Shown here piece after piece: positions 2,816 through 12,888 of a DNA stretch of 26,133 bases. A program made the translations under genes and the position numbers. This DNA comes from an uncultured Dehalococcoidales bacterium. Its GTDB lineage: Bacteria; Chloroflexota; Dehalococcoidia; Dehalococcoidales; UBA2162. Position 1 is the first letter of the stretch; each line of letters opens with the position of its first letter. The stretch spans positions 1 through 26,133 of the forward strand of contig CAZOGR010000001.1 in assembly GCA_964579355.1 (NCBI GenBank), read 5' to 3'. Below the pieces are notes generated by a model. That model had not been told where the DNA came from. It ran no database searches and was given only the letters and a program-made list of their open reading frames with translations.

Positions 2816-4579
2816 ATGTCCGGAACTTTTAATGAAAAATTCATGGAGAAGATAAGGAATAAACGCGAAGAGTGGGAAAAGGGAACGCTGAAATCTTCTC
2901 TGCAACGATTCGGCGTCAATGAACCGCCGGACCGATTTTACACTCCCTTGGATATACAAGACTGGGAATTCTCGGAAAAAGTCGGTTTCCCGGGAGAATT
3001 CCCCTTCACCGCCGGGATTTATCCCTGCCATGTTCCCGGAGCCGGGCCGGTAACCGGCGGCGGCAATATCGGGGCAACCGGCAAGGGTATGGTCAGAGCC
3101 GGACGTTATTCCGGCTACGGCATGGCTGAAGACACGCGCGACTTTTACGCGAAAGAAATCAAGCGTGGCCGGACCGTCGGCCCGAATCTGGCCTTCGACC
3201 TCCCTACCCAGATTGGTATCGATTCGGATGACCCTCGGGCTGAAGGCGAAGTCGGTAAGACCGGCGTCGCATTCGATTCGCTTCAGGACTTCGAAATTAT
3301 CTACGAGCCGTACGAAGGCGAGAACGGACTCGATAAAATAGCATCCAACTGGACGACCAATGCTCAGGCATTCGTCATCATCGCCGCCTACATCGCCCTT
3401 GCCGAGAAAAAAGGTATTAACCCGAAAATGCTCCGCGGCACCCCCCAGAATGACATTCTGAAAGAATACGTCGCCCGAGGCACCTACATATTCCCACCCA
3501 AGCACTCCCTCCGCCTCTTCCGCGATATCCTGGTATACTGTACCGAGCACACCCCGAGGCTGAACATCTGCAGCATTGCAGCCTACCATATGCGTGAAGG
3601 CGGGGCCACCCGCGAACAGGCCCTGGCATTCCACTTCGCCAACGCCATCACCTATATGCAGATAGGCGTCGACGCCGGTTTGAAAGTGGACGATTTCGTC
3701 GGACGCTTCAGCTTCAACACCCTCAGCGGCGACATGGAGATCATGAAAGAGATTGCCGCCCGCCGGGCTGCCCGCAGGATGTGGGCAAAGATTGTCCGTG
3801 ACCGCTTCGGCAGCCAGAACCCCCGCAGTCAGATATACCGGGAAGCCGGCGGATTTGTTGTCGGTTGCGTATCCTCGACCAAGCAGCGGCCGCTCAATAA
3901 CCTGACGAGAACCGTCATCGGCGGTGTCGCCGGCGCCTTCTGCGGCTATATCCCCTCGGTCGAACCTCCCTACGACGAAGCTCTCGGCCTCGGCTGGAGT
4001 ACGGAAGCCCAACAGCTTTCTGAAGATGCCGCTCGCATCATCCAGTACGAAGCCAGGCTTACCGAAGTGATGGACCCGCTGGCCGGTTCTTACTACATCG
4101 AATCACTCACCGACCAGATAGAACAGAAAGCCTGGGACATCATGAAGGAAATCGAAGACATGGGCGGTTCGCTCAAAGCTATCGAAAACGGCTACATGCA
4201 GCGCGCTGTCGCCCAGAGCGCTTACGAAAAACAGCGCCGGCTCGAAATCGGTGAGGATATTATTGTCGGCGTCAATGCTTTCACTGACAAGAGCGAACTG
4301 GATGTCCGGGTCAAGCAACTGGTACCTTATCCCTACGACCCAACCAAACAGGCCAGCGCGGAAGTGAACCAGATAAAGAAACTGCAGCAACTCCGCAAAG
4401 ACAGAGACAATAACCAGGTGGCAAAAACGCTCAGCCAGTTGAAAGAAACCGCTAAAGACGAAAATGCCAACCTGCTGCCGGCAACCGTAGAAGCTGTTAA
4501 AGCCTACGCTACCATCGGCGAGATTTGCGGCGCCCTGCGCGAAATCTTCGGAGAGTATTCGACCTACGGTACTCTGTAA
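2816..4579 (+). CDS. Adenosylcobalamin-dependent acyl-CoA mutase, substrate-binding (large) subunit; methylmalonyl-CoA mutase family but divergent
   Basis: AFDLPTQIG.DSD, GEVGK.GV, QNDILKEY.ARGTYIFP, YHMRE, YDEAL and DPLAGSYYIE motifs; RBS AGGAG at 2804-2808. Confidence 0.95.
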   Translation: MSGTFNEKFMEKIRNKREEWEKGTLKSSLQRFGVNEPPDRFYTPLDIQDWEFSEKVGFPGEFPFTAGIYPCHVPGAGPVTGGGNIGATGKGMVRAGRYSGYGMAEDTRDFYAKEIKRGRTVGPNLAFDLPTQIGIDSDDPRAEGEVGKTGVAFDSLQDFEIIYEPYEGENGLDKIASNWTTNAQAFVIIAAYIALAEKKGINPKMLRGTPQNDILKEYVARGTYIFPPKHSLRLFRDILVYCTEHTPRLNICSIAAYHMREGGATREQALAFHFANAITYMQIGVDAGLKVDDFVGRFSFNTLSGDMEIMKEIAARRAARRMWAKIVRDRFGSQNPRSQIYREAGGFVVGCVSSTKQRPLNNLTRTVIGGVAGAFCGYIPSVEPPYDEALGLGWSTEAQQLSEDAARIIQYEARLTEVMDPLAGSYYIESLTDQIEQKAWDIMKEIEDMGGSLKAIENGYMQRAVAQSAYEKQRRLEIGEDIIVGVNAFTDKSELDVRVKQLVPYPYDPTKQASAEVNQIKKLQQLRKDRDNNQVAKTLSQLKETAKDENANLLPATVEAVKAYATIGEICGALREIFGEYSTYGTL

Positions 4580-4617: not shown

Positions 4618-5013
4618 ATGAGCAGTAAACAGCCAATAAAAGTCCTGTTAGCAAAACCCGGCCTCGACGGTCACGACCGAGGCGCGAAGGTAATAACCAT
4701 GGGCTTGAGAGAAGCTGGCATGGAAGTCATTTACACCGGGCTGAGACAGACGCCCGAAATGATAGCTCAGGCAACACTGGAAGAGCAACCGGATGTGGTT
4801 GCCTTAAGCTGCCTGTCCGGCGCCCACCAGTCTCTCTTTCCCAGAGTTGTTGAAGAGCTGAAAAAGAGAAACATGAAGGACGTTCTGGTCATCGGCGGCG
4901 GGATTATTCCTGATGAGGACGTTCCCGAACTTCAGAGTAAAGGCATTAAAGCCGTTTTCGGCCCCGGCACCTCCATTAAAGAAATTGCCGAATTCATCAG
5001 GGAAAACGTATAA
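4618..5013 (+). CDS. Acyl-CoA mutase cobalamin-binding (small) subunit
   Basis: K.GLDGHDRG (DxHxxG base-off motif), SxLxG (LSCLSG) and GGII motifs. Confidence 0.95.
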
Positions 5014-5073: not shown

Positions 5074-5490
5074 ATGTCCAAGAAAAAGGTCCCTCTGGCA
5101 CAAGGTCTCTTCACATGGCCTTCTGACCAGCCGAAGCTGATTGGCAGCAGATGCAAGAAATGCGGAACTCCGGCGTTCCCGAGTGTTGCTTACTGCACCA
5201 ATCCCGATTGTGAAAAAAATCCGGATAACGTAGAGAAAATCGAGCTCAGCAATCGGGCGAAACTCTACACCTACGCCGTTCAGGCTTATCCGATGCCGGC
5301 CCCCTTCAAAATGGAACCCTTCGAGCCTTTCCCGCTTGGCATGCTCGATTTCCCGGAAGGTCTGAGGATTCTCGGTATGCTGACCACTCCCGATGTAGAG
5401 ATTGGTATGGAAATGGAAATGACCGTGAAAAAACTCTACGAAGATGACGAGAACGAGTACATCACTTGGGCATGGAAGCCGGTAAAGTAA
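5074..5490 (+). CDS. DUF35 / Zn-ribbon OB-fold acyl-CoA-binding protein (thiolase partner)
   Basis: CKKC...CTNPDC four-Cys ribbon followed by an OB-fold ('IGMEMEM'); directly upstream of a thiolase; RBS AGGAGG. Confidence 0.9.
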   Translation: MSKKKVPLAQGLFTWPSDQPKLIGSRCKKCGTPAFPSVAYCTNPDCEKNPDNVEKIELSNRAKLYTYAVQAYPMPAPFKMEPFEPFPLGMLDFPEGLRILGMLTTPDVEIGMEMEMTVKKLYEDDENEYITWAWKPVK

Positions 5491-5512
5491 GGATAGGAGA
5501 AATTAACGAAAG

Positions 5513-6730
5513 ATGAAAAACAGAGATATTGCAATTGTTGGAATGGGCGTTCATCCTTACGGAAAATGGCCTGACAAGTCCATGGCTGAAATGGGATGCT
5601 ATGCTATCAACCAGGCGCTTGAAGACGCCCACATGAAGTGGCGTGATATCGACGCCATGGCCTGCGGTGCCTACATGTGGATTGCCGACCAAGGCGGAGT
5701 ACCTTCACTGTTACTCGGAACCTCCATCTCAACCATGATGGGCGGCACGGGTATCCCCTGTGTCAACATCGTCAACGCCTGCGCCACCGGCCAGACTATT
5801 CTCAGGGAAGCCTGCCTGGCTGTCGCTTCTGGCGAACATGAAATTGCCGTTGCTGTCGGCACCGATAAATCGGCCGGCGGCTTCTTCAGACCCCAGGGCA
5901 ACGATAAACGGTATGACAACGACTGGATTCGCTACGCGATGGTCGGTGAAACCAATCCCGGCTACTGGGCGATGGAAATGCGCCGTAGAATTCACGATTG
6001 TGGCACCACCGAAGAAGACATGGCCATGGTCAAGGTCATCACCAGTAAAGGCGGCGTCCATAATCCGAACGCCCGCTATCGCAAAGAATACACCCTCCAG
6101 GAAGTCCTCGAATCGCCGATGGTTTGCGACCCGCTTCGCCTATACGAAATCTGCGCCACGAGCGACGCCGCTTCCGCAATAATCGTCGTTCCCTTCGACC
6201 AGGCGGAAAAATATACCGATAAACCGATTCGTATCGAGGGCCTGGCAGTCGGTTCGCCGTCATTCGGCGACCCCTGCATCCCACTGACCTACCTCAGTGC
6301 TTTACCGAAATCCGACGTCGGCACCCTCGGCTGGAGTGAAAGCCGTAACGCACTCGCTGCCGCGTATAAGCAGTCAGGACGCACTCCGAAGGACATCGAT
6401 GTCATCGAACTGCCCGATAACAGCTCATGGCACTACCTTACCTATATGGATATGATTCTCCAGCTCCCCTACGGCGGCTCGGATAAACTCCTCCGCGAAG
6501 GGTATTTCAATATCCCGGACGGTAAAGTTCCGGTCTGCCCCAGCGGCGGATTCGGCGCCTTCGGCGAAGCGACTGTTGCCCAGGGACTCTGGCAATGCAT
6601 CGAAGTTGCTTACCAGCTTCGCGGTGACCTCGGCCCGAGACAGATTACCAACAACCCCAAGGTCGGACTTGCTCAGAGTTACGGCTATGCCGGTAACAAC
6701 GGCGTCTGCATCATGAGCAAAGCCTTTTAA
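5513..6730 (+). CDS. SCP2/lipid-transfer-protein-type thiolase-fold enzyme with non-canonical C-terminal catalytic motifs
   Basis: N-terminal Cys90 in NACATG, HNPNA, 'C..SD.A.A', PSGG..GEA, and QLRG..G.RQ motifs. Confidence 0.9.
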   Translation: MKNRDIAIVGMGVHPYGKWPDKSMAEMGCYAINQALEDAHMKWRDIDAMACGAYMWIADQGGVPSLLLGTSISTMMGGTGIPCVNIVNACATGQTILREACLAVASGEHEIAVAVGTDKSAGGFFRPQGNDKRYDNDWIRYAMVGETNPGYWAMEMRRRIHDCGTTEEDMAMVKVITSKGGVHNPNARYRKEYTLQEVLESPMVCDPLRLYEICATSDAASAIIVVPFDQAEKYTDKPIRIEGLAVGSPSFGDPCIPLTYLSALPKSDVGTLGWSESRNALAAAYKQSGRTPKDIDVIELPDNSSWHYLTYMDMILQLPYGGSDKLLREGYFNIPDGKVPVCPSGGFGAFGEATVAQGLWQCIEVAYQLRGDLGPRQITNNPKVGLAQSYGYAGNNGVCIMSKAF

Positions 6731-6755: not shown

Positions 6756-6790
6756 GAGCAGGCTGAAGGAACACCTCCGTCAGCCTGCTC
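6756..6790. repeat. Intergenic inverted repeat (11-bp perfect stem, no U tract)
   Basis: GAGCAGGCTGA (6756-6766) pairs with TCAGCCTGCTC (6780-6790), between the thiolase and the epimerase. Confidence 0.7.
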
Positions 6791-6816: not shown

Positions 6817-7212
6817 ATGCTTAAAGGAATCAGTCACACCGGTATAGCCGTCAAGAATCTCGATGAAACGATTAAAGTCTATGAAGCCCTCGGGGCTGTC
6901 ACCGGCGAGATTCACGACGCTCCGGAATCAGGCATGAGAGCCGCCATGGTACACGCCGGCAGCAGTACCCTCGAGCTTATCGAACCGATTGGTGAAGGCG
7001 GCGTTATCGCTAAATTTATCGAAAGTCGCGGCGAAGGCATTCATCACCTCTGCATGGAGGTCGATGATATCGGAAAAACCCTCGCTGAACTCGAGTCGAA
7101 AGGTATCAGGCTGATAGACAAAGTACCGAGACAGGGTATCGAAGGCCAGGTCGCCTTCATTCATCCCAAATCGATGAACGGGGTACTTATCGAACTGCTG
7201 GAAAAACCATAG
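6817..7212 (+). CDS. mce: Methylmalonyl-CoA epimerase family (VOC) protein
   Basis: HTGIAV, ELIEP, GEGIHH and 'HPKS.NGVLIEL' motifs. Start set at ATG 6817 behind AGGAGG (6802-6807), not at the track's 6754. Confidence 0.9.
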   Translation: MLKGISHTGIAVKNLDETIKVYEALGAVTGEIHDAPESGMRAAMVHAGSSTLELIEPIGEGGVIAKFIESRGEGIHHLCMEVDDIGKTLAELESKGIRLIDKVPRQGIEGQVAFIHPKSMNGVLIELLEKP

Positions 7213-7284: not shown

Positions 7285-8280
7285 CTATTTTTTCGCTTTT
7301 TTAAGTTCGGTGACGAGAGCCGGAATAATTTCTTTGAGATCTCCGACCACCGCGTAATCGGCTGCTTTCATGATATCAGCTGCCGGATTGTTGTTGATAG
7401 CGACGATAACCTTCGAATCCTGAATGCCAATGAGATGGTGAATGACACCCGAAATACCGGCGCCGATGTACAGGTTCGAGTGAATCGTTCGGCCGCTCTG
7501 GCCAATCATCTGCCGTTCCTGGACTGCCCAGCCTTCATCGCAGGCTGGACGGGTTGCGCCGATGCTCGCGCCGAGTACCTCTGCCAGGTCTTCAATCAGC
7601 TTCCAGTTTTCCTTATTTCCAACACCGAAACCGCCGGCGACGATTATCTCGGCTTCTTCGATAGGTTTCGCTTCCAGTTCTTCGGTGACGATGTTGAGGA
7701 CTTTAGTCCTGACTTTGTCTTCAGTGATGGTTACCGGAACTTTTTCTACAACCGCTTGTTTATTCGTCTTCTCGTTTTTCTTAATGAACCCGGGCGGAAC
7801 CGTGGTCATCTGCGGCCGATGGTTCGGACAGGCGATTGATGCCAGGATACTACCGCCAAAGGCAGGTATCTGAGATCTCAGACATCCGTTCTCATCAACA
7901 TCGACGCCGACAGCATGAGCAGAAAGCCCGGTGTCAACCTTAGCGGCGACGGTCGGTGCGAGGTCCATGCCGAGCGTGGTGCCGCCGATGAGGAGGATTT
8001 CCGGCTTTTTGGTGTTTATCAAATCGGCCATTACCGTTGCATAGGCGTCGGTTCGGAAAACTTCGAGAACCGGTGATTCGGCCAGGAGAACCTTGTCGGC
8101 TCCGTAGGCTGCCAGTTCGTCAGCCAGCCCGAAAACATTGTTGCCGATTAACACTGCCGAGAGTTCACAGCCAAGCTTGTCCGCAACCTTACGTCCTGCT
8201 CCGAGCATCTCCAGGCTGACATCGAGCAACTTGCCGTTCCTCTGCTCGGCAAAAGTCCAAACTCCTTTATATGCTTCCAT
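7285..8280 (-). CDS. etfA: Electron transfer flavoprotein alpha subunit (FixB-like)
   Basis: VW.FAEQR N-terminus, PAFGG, 'IIVAGG.G', 'ATRP..D.GW', 'IGQSG' and 'GISG..HH..G' motifs. Confidence 0.95.
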   Translation of the reverse strand: MEAYKGVWTFAEQRNGKLLDVSLEMLGAGRKVADKLGCELSAVLIGNNVFGLADELAAYGADKVLLAESPVLEVFRTDAYATVMADLINTKKPEILLIGGTTLGMDLAPTVAAKVDTGLSAHAVGVDVDENGCLRSQIPAFGGSILASIACPNHRPQMTTVPPGFIKKNEKTNKQAVVEKVPVTITEDKVRTKVLNIVTEELEAKPIEEAEIIVAGGFGVGNKENWKLIEDLAEVLGASIGATRPACDEGWAVQERQMIGQSGRTIHSNLYIGAGISGVIHHLIGIQDSKVIVAINNNPAADIMKAADYAVVGDLKEIIPALVTELKKAKK

Positions 8281-8308
8281 TATGTAATCTCCTTATTTAG
8301 GTTAATAT

Positions 8309-9118
8309 CTATTCAGGGAGTACGCCTTCGGCGCGCAGTTTTTCGATAAGCTGCCGTGCAACCTCTACTGAATCACCTTTCAGTACTTCGCCCTTGCGCT
8401 TCACTTCCACGCCAATAGTATCCGGTATATAGGTAGGAGACCCGTCCTTACCGATAAGTTTTTTGTCGACATCGACTTCGTCCGCCCTCCAGATAGTCGT
8501 CTGTTTCTCAGTAGCCCAGAGGGCACCGAAAACAGGCGGAACCCGGACGTCATTGATATTTTTCAAAACCGCCAGGGTAACCGGTGTTTTCACCTCGATT
8601 TCCATGTAACCGGTTTCAATCTTTCTCTGAACTATCAGGGTATTGTCACCTGTCAAATCAATCTTCTGAACATAGGTGACATGAGCGATATCGAGAGCTT
8701 CGGCAACCTGCGGGCCGACCTGCCCGGTACTGCCGTCGACACTCTCATTACCAAGGAGGATGATGTCGTAGGCACCTATTTTCCGAATACCGGCAGCCAG
8801 CGCCCGGGCAGTAGCCCAGGTGTCGGCTCCGCCGAAAGCCCGGTCGCTTAACAGGACGGTTTTATCAACGCCGTAAGCGTAGGCCCAGGCAAGCACTTCG
8901 GTCGTATTGTCCGGCCCCATGCTGATGACCGTAACCGTTCCGCCGGTAGCTTCCTTTATCCTGAGAGCTTCCTCGATAGCATTCAAGTCGAGAGGGTTGA
9001 TGACGACCGGTATGCCCTGCCGTCTGAGTGTTTTCGTTTTGGGATCAAGAGAAAGCCTGTCCCAGTACCGTTCGTCAGGAACAGGTTTGATACAGACTAT
9101 CATATCTAATGGCTTCAT
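8309..9118 (-). CDS. etfB: Electron transfer flavoprotein beta subunit (FixA-like)
   Basis: 'IVCIKPVPD', 'INP.D..AIEEAL', 'DRAFGGADTWAT' and 'G..S.DG.TGQVGP' motifs. Confidence 0.95.
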   Translation of the reverse strand: MKPLDMIVCIKPVPDERYWDRLSLDPKTKTLRRQGIPVVINPLDLNAIEEALRIKEATGGTVTVISMGPDNTTEVLAWAYAYGVDKTVLLSDRAFGGADTWATARALAAGIRKIGAYDIILLGNESVDGSTGQVGPQVAEALDIAHVTYVQKIDLTGDNTLIVQRKIETGYMEIEVKTPVTLAVLKNINDVRVPPVFGALWATEKQTTIWRADEVDVDKKLIGKDGSPTYIPDTIGVEVKRKGEVLKGDSVEVARQLIEKLRAEGVLPE

Positions 9119-9154
9119 TTTTTCTCCTCGCCTGTTTTTTTCAGTTAAAATCCG

Positions 9155-10381
9155 CTACCAGTCCAGCTTTCCCCACCATCCTGCCGTTTCCATATTGGTA
9201 CTGCTCAGGTCCGGGTTAGCTTCGTTGCGGATGACGGCATTGGCTATCATGATATTCAGAGATTCTTCAGTACCACCTGCGCCGAATCTCAACGGAGTGT
9301 GCTTGTAGTAGTGATGAGCCATGTAGTCCTCGACGACTCCGTAACCGCCGTGAATCTTGACACAGTGCTCGGCACACCTGATAGCTGCCTTTTCTGCAAA
9401 GTTTTTGGCAGTCGCCTGCTCGGCATCAGCGCGGATATTCTTCGTCCGCAGCCAGGCAGCGCGGTAGGTAAGCGCCCGAGAAGCTTCAAGGTCTATTGCC
9501 ATATTGGCAAGGCGCGCTTGAATCATCTGGAGTTCAGAAATCGGCCTGCCGTAAAGTTTTCTTTCTTTGGCATATTTCATCGCTGTCCTGTAACAGCCTA
9601 GCGAAATGCCGGTCAACATGCTGCAGATAGTCTGGCGGCCGATATCACCGACAGCCGCGAAAACAGGGCCAAGGCCGCGTCCGATGCCTGCTTCCTCACC
9701 GACGACAAAGTTATCAGGAACGAATACATTATCGAACACGAATTCGGTAAGGTCTCCCTTTCTGCCCAGGGTGTTTTCAAGTCTACCGATTTTAAACCCG
9801 TCGAATTCTCTGTCAATGATAAAAGCGGTGAGAGACCGCGCGCCGGGAGTCTTCGGGTCGTTGGGGTCGCCGGTTTTCACCAGCGCCATGATGAAATCGG
9901 CATAATGGCCTTCGCTCTGGAAACATTTTCTTCCGTTGATAACCCATCCGCCGTCAACCTTTTTAGCATTGGTCTGAATAGCCAGAACGTCGGAACCACC
10001 GGTAGGCTCGGTAACAGCCGGGGTTGCCAGTATGTCGCCCTTGATGATTCCAGGCATATATTTTTTATAGACCGCTCCGCCACAAGCCTTGGCGAAATAG
10101 TAAGCAAATTCGCCATAAATAGCGAAGGCCAGGTCAGGCCAGGCCGCACACAGTTCTTCGATGGTAATACAACTGGCTACGTACCCGATTCCGGTGCCGC
10201 CCTCTTCTTTGGGAACGATGTGAAGATGAAGGCCAGCTCTCGTCTGGCGCCTGGCTTCCTCATCCCACATCTCCTGATCGTCGATAATCAGTTCTTTCCG
10301 ACGCGGAATAATGTATTTTTCGCAGTATTCACGAGCTATTTTTCGTGACATTTCTTCTGCCGGCGATAACTCAAAAGGCAT
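9155..10381 (-). CDS. Acyl-CoA dehydrogenase-family flavoprotein lacking the canonical catalytic glutamate
   Basis: TEP.GGSD, NGRKCF, FD.VFVP, 'KER..YGRPI' and 'HGGYG' motifs; RBS AAGGAGG; immediately upstream of etfB-etfA. Confidence 0.93.
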   Translation of the reverse strand: MPFELSPAEEMSRKIAREYCEKYIIPRRKELIIDDQEMWDEEARRQTRAGLHLHIVPKEEGGTGIGYVASCITIEELCAAWPDLAFAIYGEFAYYFAKACGGAVYKKYMPGIIKGDILATPAVTEPTGGSDVLAIQTNAKKVDGGWVINGRKCFQSEGHYADFIMALVKTGDPNDPKTPGARSLTAFIIDREFDGFKIGRLENTLGRKGDLTEFVFDNVFVPDNFVVGEEAGIGRGLGPVFAAVGDIGRQTICSMLTGISLGCYRTAMKYAKERKLYGRPISELQMIQARLANMAIDLEASRALTYRAAWLRTKNIRADAEQATAKNFAEKAAIRCAEHCVKIHGGYGVVEDYMAHHYYKHTPLRFGAGGTEESLNIMIANAVIRNEANPDLSSTNMETAGWWGKLDW

Positions 10382-10783: not shown

Positions 10784-11710
10784 ATGATTATTGATGCCCA
10801 CATGCACCTTAGCGGAAGCGGCTGGGTAAGAGGTAAGTACCTGCGTTTCGTGTGGCAGATGTACGTTACCGAGTATAACCGGGTGCACAAAACAAACAAA
10901 ACCATCGATGACTTCAGAAATATGTTGACAGCTATGAAGCCGTCAGTGGTTGATCCTGAAGGCGATGGTGTCATCGAGTTGATGGACAAAGCCGGGGTTG
11001 ACAAGGCTGTTATCTTCCCTGTCGACTGGGAATCCGTAACCGGGGCTCCGAACGTTCCTGTCATGGAACAAAACAAAGCCCATGCCGACGCGGCAAAGAA
11101 GCACACGGGCCGCTTCGTACCGATATGTGCTCTTAACCCCACCCGTGGCGACGCCATGGACCGCGCTAAACAGGCTGTTGAAGAATGGGGGATGAAGGGG
11201 TTCTACTTCATGCCGGCTTCGGGATTCCGCCCGGATGACCCGGTTTGTTTCCCCATCTACGAAAAAGCTGTCGAATGGAAAGTGCCGGTTATTATCCACT
11301 CCGGCAAGGAGATAGCTCATTGGGACTATTGCCACCCGTTCAGAATCGCCAATGTCGGCCTAATGTATCCTGAACTGAAGGTGGTTATCGGGCACGCAGG
11401 GACAAGAATATACCGGAGAGAAGCCATAGAAGCCTGTATCGTACCGAATGTTTATATGGACTTCTCAGAGTACCAGGGTTTCTGGCACCTTCAGCCCGAA
11501 AAATTCTACAACTGGTTGCGGGATGCTATCGATGCTTGCGGTCCTCAGAAGGTAATGTTCGGCAGCGGTTTCCCCAATCCGAACGTGTTGACCCCCGAAG
11601 CCGAATGGGTCAAGGCAATTACGGAACCGAAGACGAATGTCAAGTTCACTGCCGAGGAGATAGATTTCGTCATGGGCAAGACTGCCGAGTCAGTCTTCGA
11701 TTTTTCTTAA
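10784..11710 (+). CDS. Amidohydrolase_2 family metalloprotein (decarboxylase/hydratase-like subgroup)
   Basis: DAHMH (HxH), IIHSG, IGHAG and 'KVMFGS.FP' motifs. Start set at ATG 10784 behind AAGGAGG. Confidence 0.88.
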   Translation: MIIDAHMHLSGSGWVRGKYLRFVWQMYVTEYNRVHKTNKTIDDFRNMLTAMKPSVVDPEGDGVIELMDKAGVDKAVIFPVDWESVTGAPNVPVMEQNKAHADAAKKHTGRFVPICALNPTRGDAMDRAKQAVEEWGMKGFYFMPASGFRPDDPVCFPIYEKAVEWKVPVIIHSGKEIAHWDYCHPFRIANVGLMYPELKVVIGHAGTRIYRREAIEACIVPNVYMDFSEYQGFWHLQPEKFYNWLRDAIDACGPQKVMFGSGFPNPNVLTPEAEWVKAITEPKTNVKFTAEEIDFVMGKTAESVFDFS

Positions 11711-11745
11711 ACCTTAATTAGTAAAACAAATAATCGGAGGAAAAT

Positions 11746-12402
11746 ATGGCTGATATTCTGGATATCATCTCCAGCCGGCAGAGTATCCGTAAATATACGG
11801 ATGAACCCGTCCCGGACGAGATGGTTGATAAAATCCTTGAAGCCGCGCGGTGGGCACCGAGCGGAGAAAACGAACAACCCTGGCACTTCGTTGTTGTCAA
11901 AGACCCCGAAACCCGCAAGAAAATCGGTGAATACTGCAAGGTAGGCACCGGCCAGAGAGGTACCGCCGAACACTGTCTTCATGAAGACCACCGTTTCGAT
12001 GTTTATACCGACCCGGTCGAAAAAGCCCGTCTGCAGGAATTCTACTACAGTGGTTCCGTATCGTTCTTCCCGGCCAATGCCCCCGTCGTCATCATCGCCG
12101 CGGGCAAAGTCACTGGAATGATGGATACCCCGTACGACCTTTCGGCAGCAATTCAGAATGCCATTCTCGAAGCTCACTCTCTCGGGCTGGGAGCCTGCTG
12201 GGTCCACGGACCCGCGGTCTACCCCCGAATCGTCAAGAAACTGAAAGAGCTTCTCGGTATTCCCACCGGTATGGCTGACTATAAAGTCCTCGCCATCATC
12301 TCGGTCGGCTGGCCGGCAGGAAAACGAAGTCACCCCCAGGGAAGGAAAGAAAGGTCGACCTTCGTGCACTTCGAAAAATTCGGGAACATGAAGAGGGGCT
12401 AA
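11746..12402 (+). CDS. Nitroreductase-family FMN flavoprotein
   Basis: R.SIRKY, 'APSGEN.QPW.F', 'D...AIQN..L.A.SLGLG.CW' motifs. Confidence 0.92.
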   Translation: MADILDIISSRQSIRKYTDEPVPDEMVDKILEAARWAPSGENEQPWHFVVVKDPETRKKIGEYCKVGTGQRGTAEHCLHEDHRFDVYTDPVEKARLQEFYYSGSVSFFPANAPVVIIAAGKVTGMMDTPYDLSAAIQNAILEAHSLGLGACWVHGPAVYPRIVKKLKELLGIPTGMADYKVLAIISVGWPAGKRSHPQGRKERSTFVHFEKFGNMKRG

Positions 12403-12888
12403 ATGGATCAGATAGCATATACAAACGACCTGCTCACCAGGTTCGAAGAAATTTTTTACCATGAACTGTCGCAGATTAACGCTCGCTGCAAGGTCGAGTT
12501 AATCGGCTCCGATTTCCTCAATGATAAAAACATCAAAGGGAATACGGTCGAGGAACTGGTCCAGAACTGTATCGATGAAATCAAGGCTGACGGCTTCGTC
12601 AAGGACATGACCGGTAAAGTTACCGGACGCGGCATTCTCCTGAAACTCAACATGAAAGGCTGCATCCACCTGCCGAAAGAAGCGAAACTCCAGGCACAGG
12701 GAATCGAGCCCTACCTCTGCCCTCTGGCAAACATGATTTCCGAGCAGATAATCAGCAAACTGAACTACATGACCACCTATTCAGCCGGCATGACTGTCGA
12801 TACACAGAAAGGCGAATGCGTCATATACTGCGCCATTTACAAGGATATGGACTCTATCGGCAAGGTATCGGACTGGACAAAGGAATAG
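12403..12888 (+). CDS. Hypothetical protein, possibly a V4R-like Cys-coordinated ligand-binding fold
   Basis: ATG abuts the nitroreductase TAA, with RBS AGAGGGG. 'GCIH...CPLAN...EC' Cys spacing resembles V4R-type domains; the fold call is inference. Confidence 0.6.
   Translation: MDQIAYTNDLLTRFEEIFYHELSQINARCKVELIGSDFLNDKNIKGNTVEELVQNCIDEIKADGFVKDMTGKVTGRGILLKLNMKGCIHLPKEAKLQAQGIEPYLCPLANMISEQIISKLNYMTTYSAGMTVDTQKGECVIYCAIYKDMDSIGKVSDWTKE

Follow-up and report, generated by a model that had tools for sequence, protein, structure and literature searches.

A conserved DUF35/SCP2-thiolase-like gene pair with a Cys/PDNS/GEA active-site signature in uncultured Dehalococcoidales

Introduction

Complexes of DUF35 proteins with thiolase-fold partners have repeatedly yielded new chemistry: they channel intermediates between thiolase and HMG-CoA synthase (HMGCS), catalyze Friedel-Crafts acylation, act as retro-aldolases on steroids, or form a fatty-acid synthase in archaea. 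Here we analyze a gene pair of this kind at positions 5074-6730 of a 26,133-nucleotide stretch of DNA (the window; contig CAZOGR010000001.1, positions 1 to 26,133) from the metagenome-assembled genome (MAG) GCA_964579355.1 of an uncultured Dehalococcoidales bacterium. The pair encodes a DUF35 protein and an SCP2-type thiolase-fold protein, termed THL below (Table 1).

The SCP2 thiolases possess an HDCF motif, a GHP motif and a nucleophilic cysteine, and their acid/base cysteine sits in the HDCF loop rather than in a C-terminal CxG motif (PMC12329534). The nucleophilic cysteine is absent from Ltp2, Sal and TbSLP, which read YDHF (plus Tyr344), YDCY and YDCF, respectively, at the HDCF position (PMC12329534). 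The steroid side-chain retro-aldolases Ltp2 and Sal belong to modules of acyl-CoA dehydrogenase (ACAD), hydratase and aldolase that contain no 3-hydroxyacyl-CoA dehydrogenase, have DUF35 partners, and employ the catalytic tyrosine of YDHF/YDCY plus Tyr344 or Cys304 (PMC12329534). PhlC of the Friedel-Crafts acyltransferase PhlACB has His347 at the GHP position and depends on Cys88, the nucleophile, which is acetylated during the reaction (PMC6392133). In BbsB, alignment to PDB 7pxp shows HDAF, GHP and the nucleophilic cysteine.

Compared to these enzymes, the THL family combines Cys90 with PDNS and GEA, a set that matches none of the SCP2 thiolases, BbsB, PhlC, Ltp2, Sal and SLP. In the literature on DUF35 thiolases, mutases and Ltp proteins, we found no description of a thiolase-like enzyme with a Cys/PDNS/GEA or Cys/Glu set. 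We regard the pair as a real variation on the DUF35/SCP2-thiolase-like theme, conserved but uncharacterised, and the labels “acetyl-CoA acetyltransferase” and “lipid-transfer protein” attached to the THL family are wrong.

The active site of the THL family

All motifs listed in the first-pass annotation of this DNA are present in THL: NACATG (residues 88-93, including Cys90), ELPDNS (299-304), GEAT (351-354) and GNNG (394-397). Residue-level HMMER alignments place Cys90 at the nucleophile position, ELPDNS opposite VHDCF of 6esq and LHDAF of BbsB (7pxp), and GEA opposite GHA/GHP. Pro301 occupies the position of the HDCF histidine and Asn303 that of the acid/base cysteine, whereas Glu352 replaces the GHP histidine that serves the oxyanion hole and activates the cysteine. 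THL therefore retains the nucleophilic cysteine and the fold of an SCP2-type thiolase, but neither the HDCF loop nor the GHP histidine. Among the motif changes listed in the annotation, those that matter are the losses of the histidine and cysteine of HDCF and of the histidine of GHP; the missing terminal CxG says little, because the acid/base cysteine of SCP2-type thiolases belongs to the HDCF loop.

The AlphaFold model of THL has a pTM of 0.84, and Foldseek aligned it with TM-scores of ~0.8 to DUF35-dependent and SCP2 thiolases (6hsj/6hsp) at identities of ≤30%. Neither an HMMER search against PDB sequences nor the Foldseek search with the predicted model found a solved structure of more than 30% identity.

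A word-based search of 5.8 billion proteins returned 1,196 matches to THL at E 0.001 or better, the best 120 of which are 52-93% identical, and 117 full-length homologues were used to count invariant residues. Cys90, Pro301, Asp302, Asn303, Trp306, Gly351, Glu352, Gln388, Tyr390, Gly391 and Tyr392 are identical in 117/117 sequences, and Asn395 and Asn396 are nearly invariant, although the overall column identity of the family alignment is only 73%. Moreover, Cys90 and Glu352 stay invariant in a broader clade of 23 Cys/Glu sequences. As the substitutions are shared by 117 homologues spanning 52-93% identity, they are not a matter of chance or decay, and sequence conservation marks the Cys/PDNS/GEA pattern as a constrained family signature.

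The same conservation bears on the idea that THL is a non-catalytic scaffold or pseudo-enzyme joining DUF35 to another enzyme. Only one of the four classical catalytic positions is retained, and DUF35 complexes are known scaffolds; however, family-specific invariant residues persist in all four active-site loops, Cys90 included, across bacteria and archaea, at positions where dead subunits usually drift. A scaffold role is thus highly improbable.

Family extent and relatives

The hosts of the THL family among species-representative genomes are Dehalococcoidales/Dehalococcoidia, other Chloroflexota, Nezhaarchaeota and Thermoprotei, together with a single MAG each from Nitrososphaeria and Firmicutes, all of them uncultured. 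When 1.84 billion cluster representatives (50% clustering) were searched exhaustively with HMMER, the whole family corresponds to a single representative at 480 bits, and the following matches, at ≤303 bits, carry xD/GE motifs. Among 112 full-length, motif-typed relatives, the nearest keep the cysteine, lack the HD histidine and have GE at the GHP position. They include P0123 with PDNS/GEV, P0124 and P0125 with QDNC/GEA and ADNS/GEA, P0127, P0129, P0136 and P0185 of the YDLS type with GEA or GES, and a further group with QDxx/GEP, for which a metagenome scan recovered at least 552 relatives.

FastTree analysis resolved the THL family as a single clade (support 99) within a 21-row clade that also holds the YDLS/GE proteins of the PRK06059 core (support 99), and this in turn within a 31-row Cys/xD/GE clade (support 94) apart from the HDCF/GHP thiolases. 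By these comparisons the family sits in a larger uncharacterised “Cys + Glu” SCP2-like lineage that includes the PRK06059 “lipid-transfer protein”. The best NCBIfam model for THL is indeed NF004715 (PRK06059), with 352.7 bits against a cut-off of 424; the family representative P0120 scores 314.7 bits, and core members score 431-717 bits (P0127, 717). Similar to the THL family, the PRK06059 core has a nucleophilic cysteine, a glutamate for the GHP histidine, no HDCF histidine and a DUF35 gene directly upstream. The two differ in that the core reads (V/L)YD(L/V)(S/T) in place of LPDNS and G(L/I/M)(F/Y)GH in place of GYAGNN.

The first-pass annotation had noted a resemblance to actinobacterial “lipid-transfer protein”/OB-fold pairs. 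The PRK06059 model and an Acidimicrobiales protein in the P0127 cluster speak for this, whereas THL falls below the cut-off and its relatives are nearly all from Chloroflexota and archaea; the sequence data therefore suggest the right neighborhood and a different family. At a single locus (L050:6547-12361), a core PRK06059 protein whose cluster includes an Acidimicrobiales protein is encoded in the order DUF35-THL-crotonase-bioA-like-bioF-like-bioD-like, and might thus help to form pimeloyl-CoA or another precursor of biotin.

Comparison with characterised DUF35-associated enzymes

The closest solved structures are the benzoylsuccinyl-CoA thiolase BbsAB (7pxp) and the archaeal acetoacetyl-CoA thiolase/HMGCS/DUF35 complex (6esq), at 25-30% identity and TM-scores of ~0.8. 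They share with the THL pair the two-gene DUF35 and thiolase layout and the nucleophilic cysteine but, unlike THL, are true thiolases that keep HD(C/A)F and GH(P/A). The earlier statement that the pair is not BbsAB is borne out: BbsB keeps HD and GHP, and THL scores only 128.3 bits against model NF053628 (cut-off 750), just as the DUF35 protein scores 40.9 bits against the BbsA model NF053627 (cut-off 250).

Ltp2 (TcLtp2/ChsH2-DUF35) and Sal (CtSal/Shy-DUF35) have the SCP2-thiolase fold and a DUF35 partner in common with THL, with low sequence similarity (6ok1, 74 bits; 9myr, 57 bits). The annotation had also set the pair apart from Ltp2, correctly for both aldolases: they carry YDHF or YDCY without a nucleophilic cysteine, whereas THL has Pro301 at the tyrosine position and keeps Cys90. 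Ltp2 and Sal follow an ACAD and a hotdog hydratase, with no dehydrogenase in between. In the THL family, DUF35 is always present and the loci of group 3 (see below) combine ACAD and a hotdog protein without a dehydrogenase; the window has an ACAD and no recognisable hydratase.

PhlC is a DUF35-associated, SCP2-like protein that works via an acylated nucleophilic cysteine, and suggests an alternative in which THL would transfer an acyl group through acyl-Cys90 between CoA and another acceptor, without C-C cleavage of the CoA ester. Besides the Cys88 precedent, THL has kept no classical catalytic residue other than Cys90. Nevertheless, PhlC keeps His347, requires the HMG-CoA-synthase-like PhlA and acts in a polyketide context, and aligns with THL at only 75 bits. 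In THL the GHP histidine is replaced by glutamate, no HMGCS-like gene lies within the window, and the neighbors belong to acyl-CoA catabolism (ACAD, electron-transfer flavoprotein (ETF) and mutase). Such an acyltransferase is accordingly improbable.

The DUF35 protein has the ribbon cysteines Cys27, Cys30, Cys41 and Cys46 (CxxC-x10-Cx4C), which do not vary among 20 aligned orthologues, and its PDB matches are the DUF35 chains of 6esq, 7pxp and 6ok1. The two proteins are predicted to form a heterocomplex, given their homology to the two subunits in each of 6esq and 7pxp, the homology of the DUF35 protein to its counterpart in 6ok1, and the invariant adjacency of the genes. Co-folding of THL and DUF35 with the Amidohydro_2 protein of the window gave a score of 0.00, which speaks neither for nor against binding.

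Gene context across loci

We compared 42 THL-family loci, the window included, and established their gene contexts by running tblastn on the locus DNA and clustering its open reading frames (ORFs). DUF35 is present in 42/42 loci and lies upstream of THL in all 41 that have upstream sequence, whereas ACAD occurs in 25/42 and a hotdog protein (FAS1_DH_region) in 15/42. Among the loci with annotated neighbors, no operon-linked 3-hydroxyacyl-CoA dehydrogenase was found; one archaeal copy lies on the opposite strand.

Group 1 (82-94% identity, Dehalococcoidales) shares the arrangement of the window, with mutL-mutS-DUF35-THL-epimerase, EtfAB-ACAD, and an operon of amidohydrolase, nitroreductase and a 161-residue protein. 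In group 2 (66-72% identity), DUF35-THL is divergent from this latter operon, which adjoins it directly, and the amidohydrolase is 81-86% identical, above the conservation of THL itself. In the group 2 genome G001, mutL-mutS-epimerase and ACAD-EtfB-EtfA share the contig of the pair at a distance of ~9 kb, and in three further group 2 genomes the mutase and ACAD orthologues (61-67% identical) are together on one contig. As the gene set of the window is conserved in genomes of only 65-72% identity while DUF35-THL has moved there from the mutase operon to the amidohydrolase operon, the whole island appears to be one functional unit.

Group 3 (55-60% identity, Dehalococcoidia/Chloroflexota) has the order ACAD (PimC-like)-ACAD (PimD/IpdE2-like)-DUF35-THL-hotdog, for instance at L027, with no dehydrogenase; this order resembles that of the ChsE1E2-ChsH1H2-Ltp2 (igr) operon. 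In the archaeal group 4, the pair is accompanied by ACAD and ETF or by FAD-oxidase/CCG proteins, and in L002 the opposite-strand 3-hydroxyacyl-CoA dehydrogenase lies beside it. Group 3 and archaeal genomes have no orthologue of the window mutase, so the core function of the family is independent of the mutase.

Mutase adjacency was also considered as a general trait of the Cys/Glu lineage and rejected, in view of these genomes and of the QD/GEP relatives, whose usual neighbors at 80 metagenome loci are crotonases (27/80) and ACADs (11/80), with a mutase at none of them. A second, independent mutL-mutS-DUF35-THL synteny is found at L051:1459-6665 with a different Cys/Glu subfamily (P0299, QD/GEP type), in which THL is 33% and the mutase 35% identical. 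This mutase lacks the carboxylate-binding Tyr/Arg, so its substrate would not be carboxylated. A gene for a classical thiolase follows the block, and the 90%-identity protein cluster of this contig includes a Dehalococcoidia sequence.

A putative non-canonical C-C cleavage

Two other DUF35-associated thiolase-fold genes are encoded in the MAG. One is canonical (VCS/VHDCF/GHP; C12:21292-22434, or L005:1462-2649, + strand) and has DUF35 downstream rather than upstream, so ordinary thiolysis is already covered. The other (C4:25036-26151, or L006:1477-2625, + strand) has no nucleophilic cysteine, and its HDCF position is occupied by IYDCF, resembling YDCY of Sal and YDCF of TbSLP. It has a crotonase directly upstream and DUF35 downstream and may encode a Sal-type retro-aldolase.

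In THL, both histidines of oxyanion hole 1, which in thiolases polarise the thioester and activate the cysteine, are replaced, as is the acid/base cysteine of HDCF. Ordinary Claisen or retro-Claisen chemistry is disfavored because Glu352 would place a negative charge where the enolate oxyanion needs to be stabilised, while the backbone-amide oxyanion hole of the acyl-enzyme is expected to persist. From these residues we infer that THL is active, yet not as a Claisen-type thiolase.

A rewired 3-oxoacyl-CoA thiolase might nevertheless be conceived, in which Glu352 activates Cys90, and Asn303, His307, Tyr390 and Tyr392 take the place of the lost oxyanion-hole residues and proton donor, with a 3-hydroxyacyl-CoA dehydrogenase supplied from elsewhere in the genome. 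Cys90 is invariant; homology suggests that the oxyanion hole formed by its amide and by the glycine of the last loop is intact, and asparagine is catalytic in the KAS III-type branch of the superfamily. A 3-hydroxyacyl-CoA dehydrogenase gene does lie on contig C28 of the MAG and another beside the pair in L002, and in the mutase operon of L051 the Cys/Glu relative has a classical thiolase as its neighbor. Yet both histidines and the acid/base cysteine are replaced in every member, the carboxylate is ill placed for an enolate, the genome already has its canonical DUF35-thiolase, and the group 3 operons provide ACAD and hotdog proteins without a dehydrogenase. We consider retro-Claisen cleavage by THL unlikely.

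Instead, we propose that THL is a retro-aldol-type lyase acting on a 3-hydroxyacyl-CoA through Cys90 and Glu352, to which we assign a probability of about 40%. The residue changes, the canonical thiolase of the MAG and the ACAD/hotdog contexts without a dehydrogenase make this the most economical proposal. THL would perform a chain-shortening C-C cleavage after ACAD (and a hydratase) in β-oxidation-like modules that have no 3-hydroxyacyl-CoA dehydrogenase. Cys90 and Glu352 might function as an acid/base pair; alternatively, a covalent acyl-Cys90 intermediate might form with Glu352 as general base. A glutamate general base next to an acyl-cysteine occurs in HMG-CoA synthase and OleA. In this Dehalococcoidales lineage, the pair has been recruited to the conserved island of mutase, epimerase, ACAD/ETF and Amidohydro_2/nitroreductase operon, where it would cleave a product arising downstream of a rearranged, oxidised acyl-CoA. 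The first-pass annotation had suggested a non-standard C-C cleavage or acyl transfer in place of the dehydrogenase step, and the ACAD-linked modules without an operon-linked dehydrogenase agree with it. The wider claim, that the Cys/Glu clade is a new class of the thiolase superfamily, Cys-dependent and possibly covalent in its retro-aldol or lyase reaction, with a glutamate base in place of two histidines, and supplanting both dehydrogenase and thiolase, is rather doubtful at present.

Several points weigh against the lyase proposal. Known aldolases of this fold lost the cysteine and use the tyrosine of YD(H/C)x, whereas the cysteine of THL is invariant and a proline stands at the tyrosine position, so retro-aldol cleavage would need a new mechanism. 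A Pfam/NCBIfam scan of the neighborhood found no recognisable enoyl-CoA hydratase in the window island, and to cast the Amidohydro_2 protein in that role is no more than a guess. The dehydrogenase genes on C28 and in L002 count here as well. The link to the mutase is lineage-specific, being absent from the group 3 and archaeal genomes and from all of the wider QD/GEP loci (0/80). Finally, the phylogeny comes from FastTree alone and contains no characterised anchor sequences, and the reactions of the Cys/Glu clade are deduced from sequence and gene context.

The operon and the surrounding island

The pair lies in a compact five-gene operon on the + strand, with gaps of 22-60 nt, of which the shortest separates DUF35 from THL (Table 1). 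Shine-Dalgarno-like sequences precede the start codons of DUF35 (AAGGAGG, ATG 5074) and THL (AGGAG, ATG 5513). The epimerase-like gene probably starts at ATG 6817, with AGGAGG upstream, and the annotated ORF runs from 6754. Between THL and this start, at 6756-6790, lies a GC-rich hairpin; its stem has 11 bp (GAGCAGGCTGA ... TCAGCCTGCTC), and no U-tract accompanies it.

Table 1. Genes of the island and active-site elements of THL, in window coordinates
Feature	Position	Strand	Description
B12 acyl-CoA mutase large subunit (split enzyme)	2816..4579	+	Pfam, NCBIfam, PDB alignments
B12-binding small mutase subunit	4618..5013	+	PF02310, TIGR00640
DUF35 gene (zinc ribbon + OB fold)	5074..5490	+	138 aa; Pfam PF12172 (zf-ChsH2) and PF01796 (OB_ChsH2_C), both above cut-offs
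THL, SCP2-type thiolase-fold gene	5513..6730	+	405 aa; Pfam Thiolase_C_1; Thiolase_N match sub-threshold
Cys90 codon, thiolase nucleophile position (NACATG)	5780..5782	+	aligned to Cys of 6esq, 7yvy, 7pxp
E299-L-P-D-N-S304 loop at HDCF/NEAF position	6407..6424	+	alignment to solved thiolases
G351-E352-A353 at GHP position	6563..6571	+	alignment to solved thiolases
Q388-x-Y-G-Y-A-G-N-N396, last active-site loop (C-beta4/C-beta5 loop position)	6674..6700	+	family alignment
Methylmalonyl-CoA-epimerase-like VOC protein, last operon gene	6817..7212	+	TIGR03081, 134 bits
EtfA, EtfB, acyl-CoA dehydrogenase	7285..10381	-	C-terminal YEG motif of the ACAD reads GAGGT (no Glu)
Amidohydro_2	10784..11710	+	travels with the DUF35/THL pair
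Nitroreductase-family flavoprotein, 218 aa	11746..12402	+	PF00881, 128 bits; conserved in 10 loci
161-aa protein	12403..12888	+	no family match; same operon as Amidohydro_2

The best solved relative of the mutase large subunit is HcmA (343 bits), and it is about equally close to methylmalonyl-CoA mutase (MCM). In alignments to HcmA and human MCM, the residues corresponding to MCM Tyr89 (..GRYSGYG) and Arg207 (QNDILKEYVARGT) are conserved in it, with ~14 extra residues just ahead of the former. Since these residues bind the substrate carboxylate, the mutase is predicted to act on a 2-carboxyacyl- or succinyl-type CoA ester, which may be plain methylmalonyl-CoA or a bulkier analogue. No other acyl-CoA mutase was found in the MAG, which is 65% complete, and a carboxyltransferase is encoded elsewhere in the MAG.

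The position of the pair between this carboxylate-recognising mutase and the epimerase, both of which would handle 2-carboxyacyl-CoAs, raises the possibility that THL decarboxylates the product of the mutase, as an (alkyl)malonyl-CoA decarboxylase similar to those of the ketosynthase/SLP kind. A precedent is the weak malonyl-CoA decarboxylase activity of the SCP2-like TbSLP, as cited in PMC12329534. Most family members, however, have no mutase nearby and their genomes have no orthologue of it, decarboxylating ketosynthases need His/His or His/Asn, which are absent in THL, and the adjacent ACAD is a better candidate for decarboxylation, so this reading is even less probable than acyl transfer.

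The ACADs of groups 1 and 3 are without the C-terminal YEG glutamate (GAGGT, LAGGT, FAFGD); in group 3, both members of the tandem read so, with LAGGT and FAFGD (L024-L047; for instance L027:7133-9460). Heteromeric ACADs probably place the catalytic base elsewhere, which makes the loss in group 3 no more than suggestive. The window ACAD is probably IaaF-like and decarboxylating by analogy with the IaaF subclass of decarboxylating alkylmalonyl-CoA dehydrogenases, which has GGG at the YEG motif (PMC8360864). The window island further resembles the anaerobic indoleacetate (iaa) system, with the IaaGH mutase and IaaF, in combining a carboxylate-type B12 mutase, an epimerase, a Glu-less ACAD and a dedicated ETF; the likeness is one of motif and gene content only. 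The words thiolase and aldolase do not occur in the IaaF paper (PMC8360864). An acetone-induced Desulfotomaculum cluster also has a DUF35/thiolase pair plus a B12 mutase, a likeness again confined to gene content. In G001 (contig C15; L132:4110-6911), aldehyde:ferredoxin oxidoreductase and Zn-alcohol dehydrogenase genes flank the ACAD-ETF operon, an adjacency that is not conserved. The oxidoreductase was rejected as a marker of an aldehyde product, as no second genome shows this adjacency and each genome has 6-22 paralogues.

The Amidohydro_2 protein has a mean column identity of 88% over 10 loci, above that of THL, and its real start is probably at 10784 (MIIDAHMH). A LigJ-type hydratase function is unsupported for it, its nearest solved relative being the C-C hydrolase LigY (E 1e-4). 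A 251-residue minus-strand ORF at 11707-12462 has no family match and is probably a shadow ORF; it overlaps the nitroreductase gene.

Implications

The Cys/Glu lineage is common in uncultured subsurface Chloroflexota and archaea, so that much of anaerobic acyl-CoA metabolism may carry wrong annotations. If the reaction of THL were assigned, this would give a function to PRK06059-type proteins and help toward the substrate of the island of mutase and Glu-less ACAD in Dehalococcoidales. If the Cys/Glu clade does form a new catalytic class, anaerobes could use it to shorten branched, tertiary or carboxylated acyl-CoAs that are not oxidisable at C3, and it would complete a previously undescribed B12-mutase/decarboxylating-ACAD degradation route in Dehalococcoidales.

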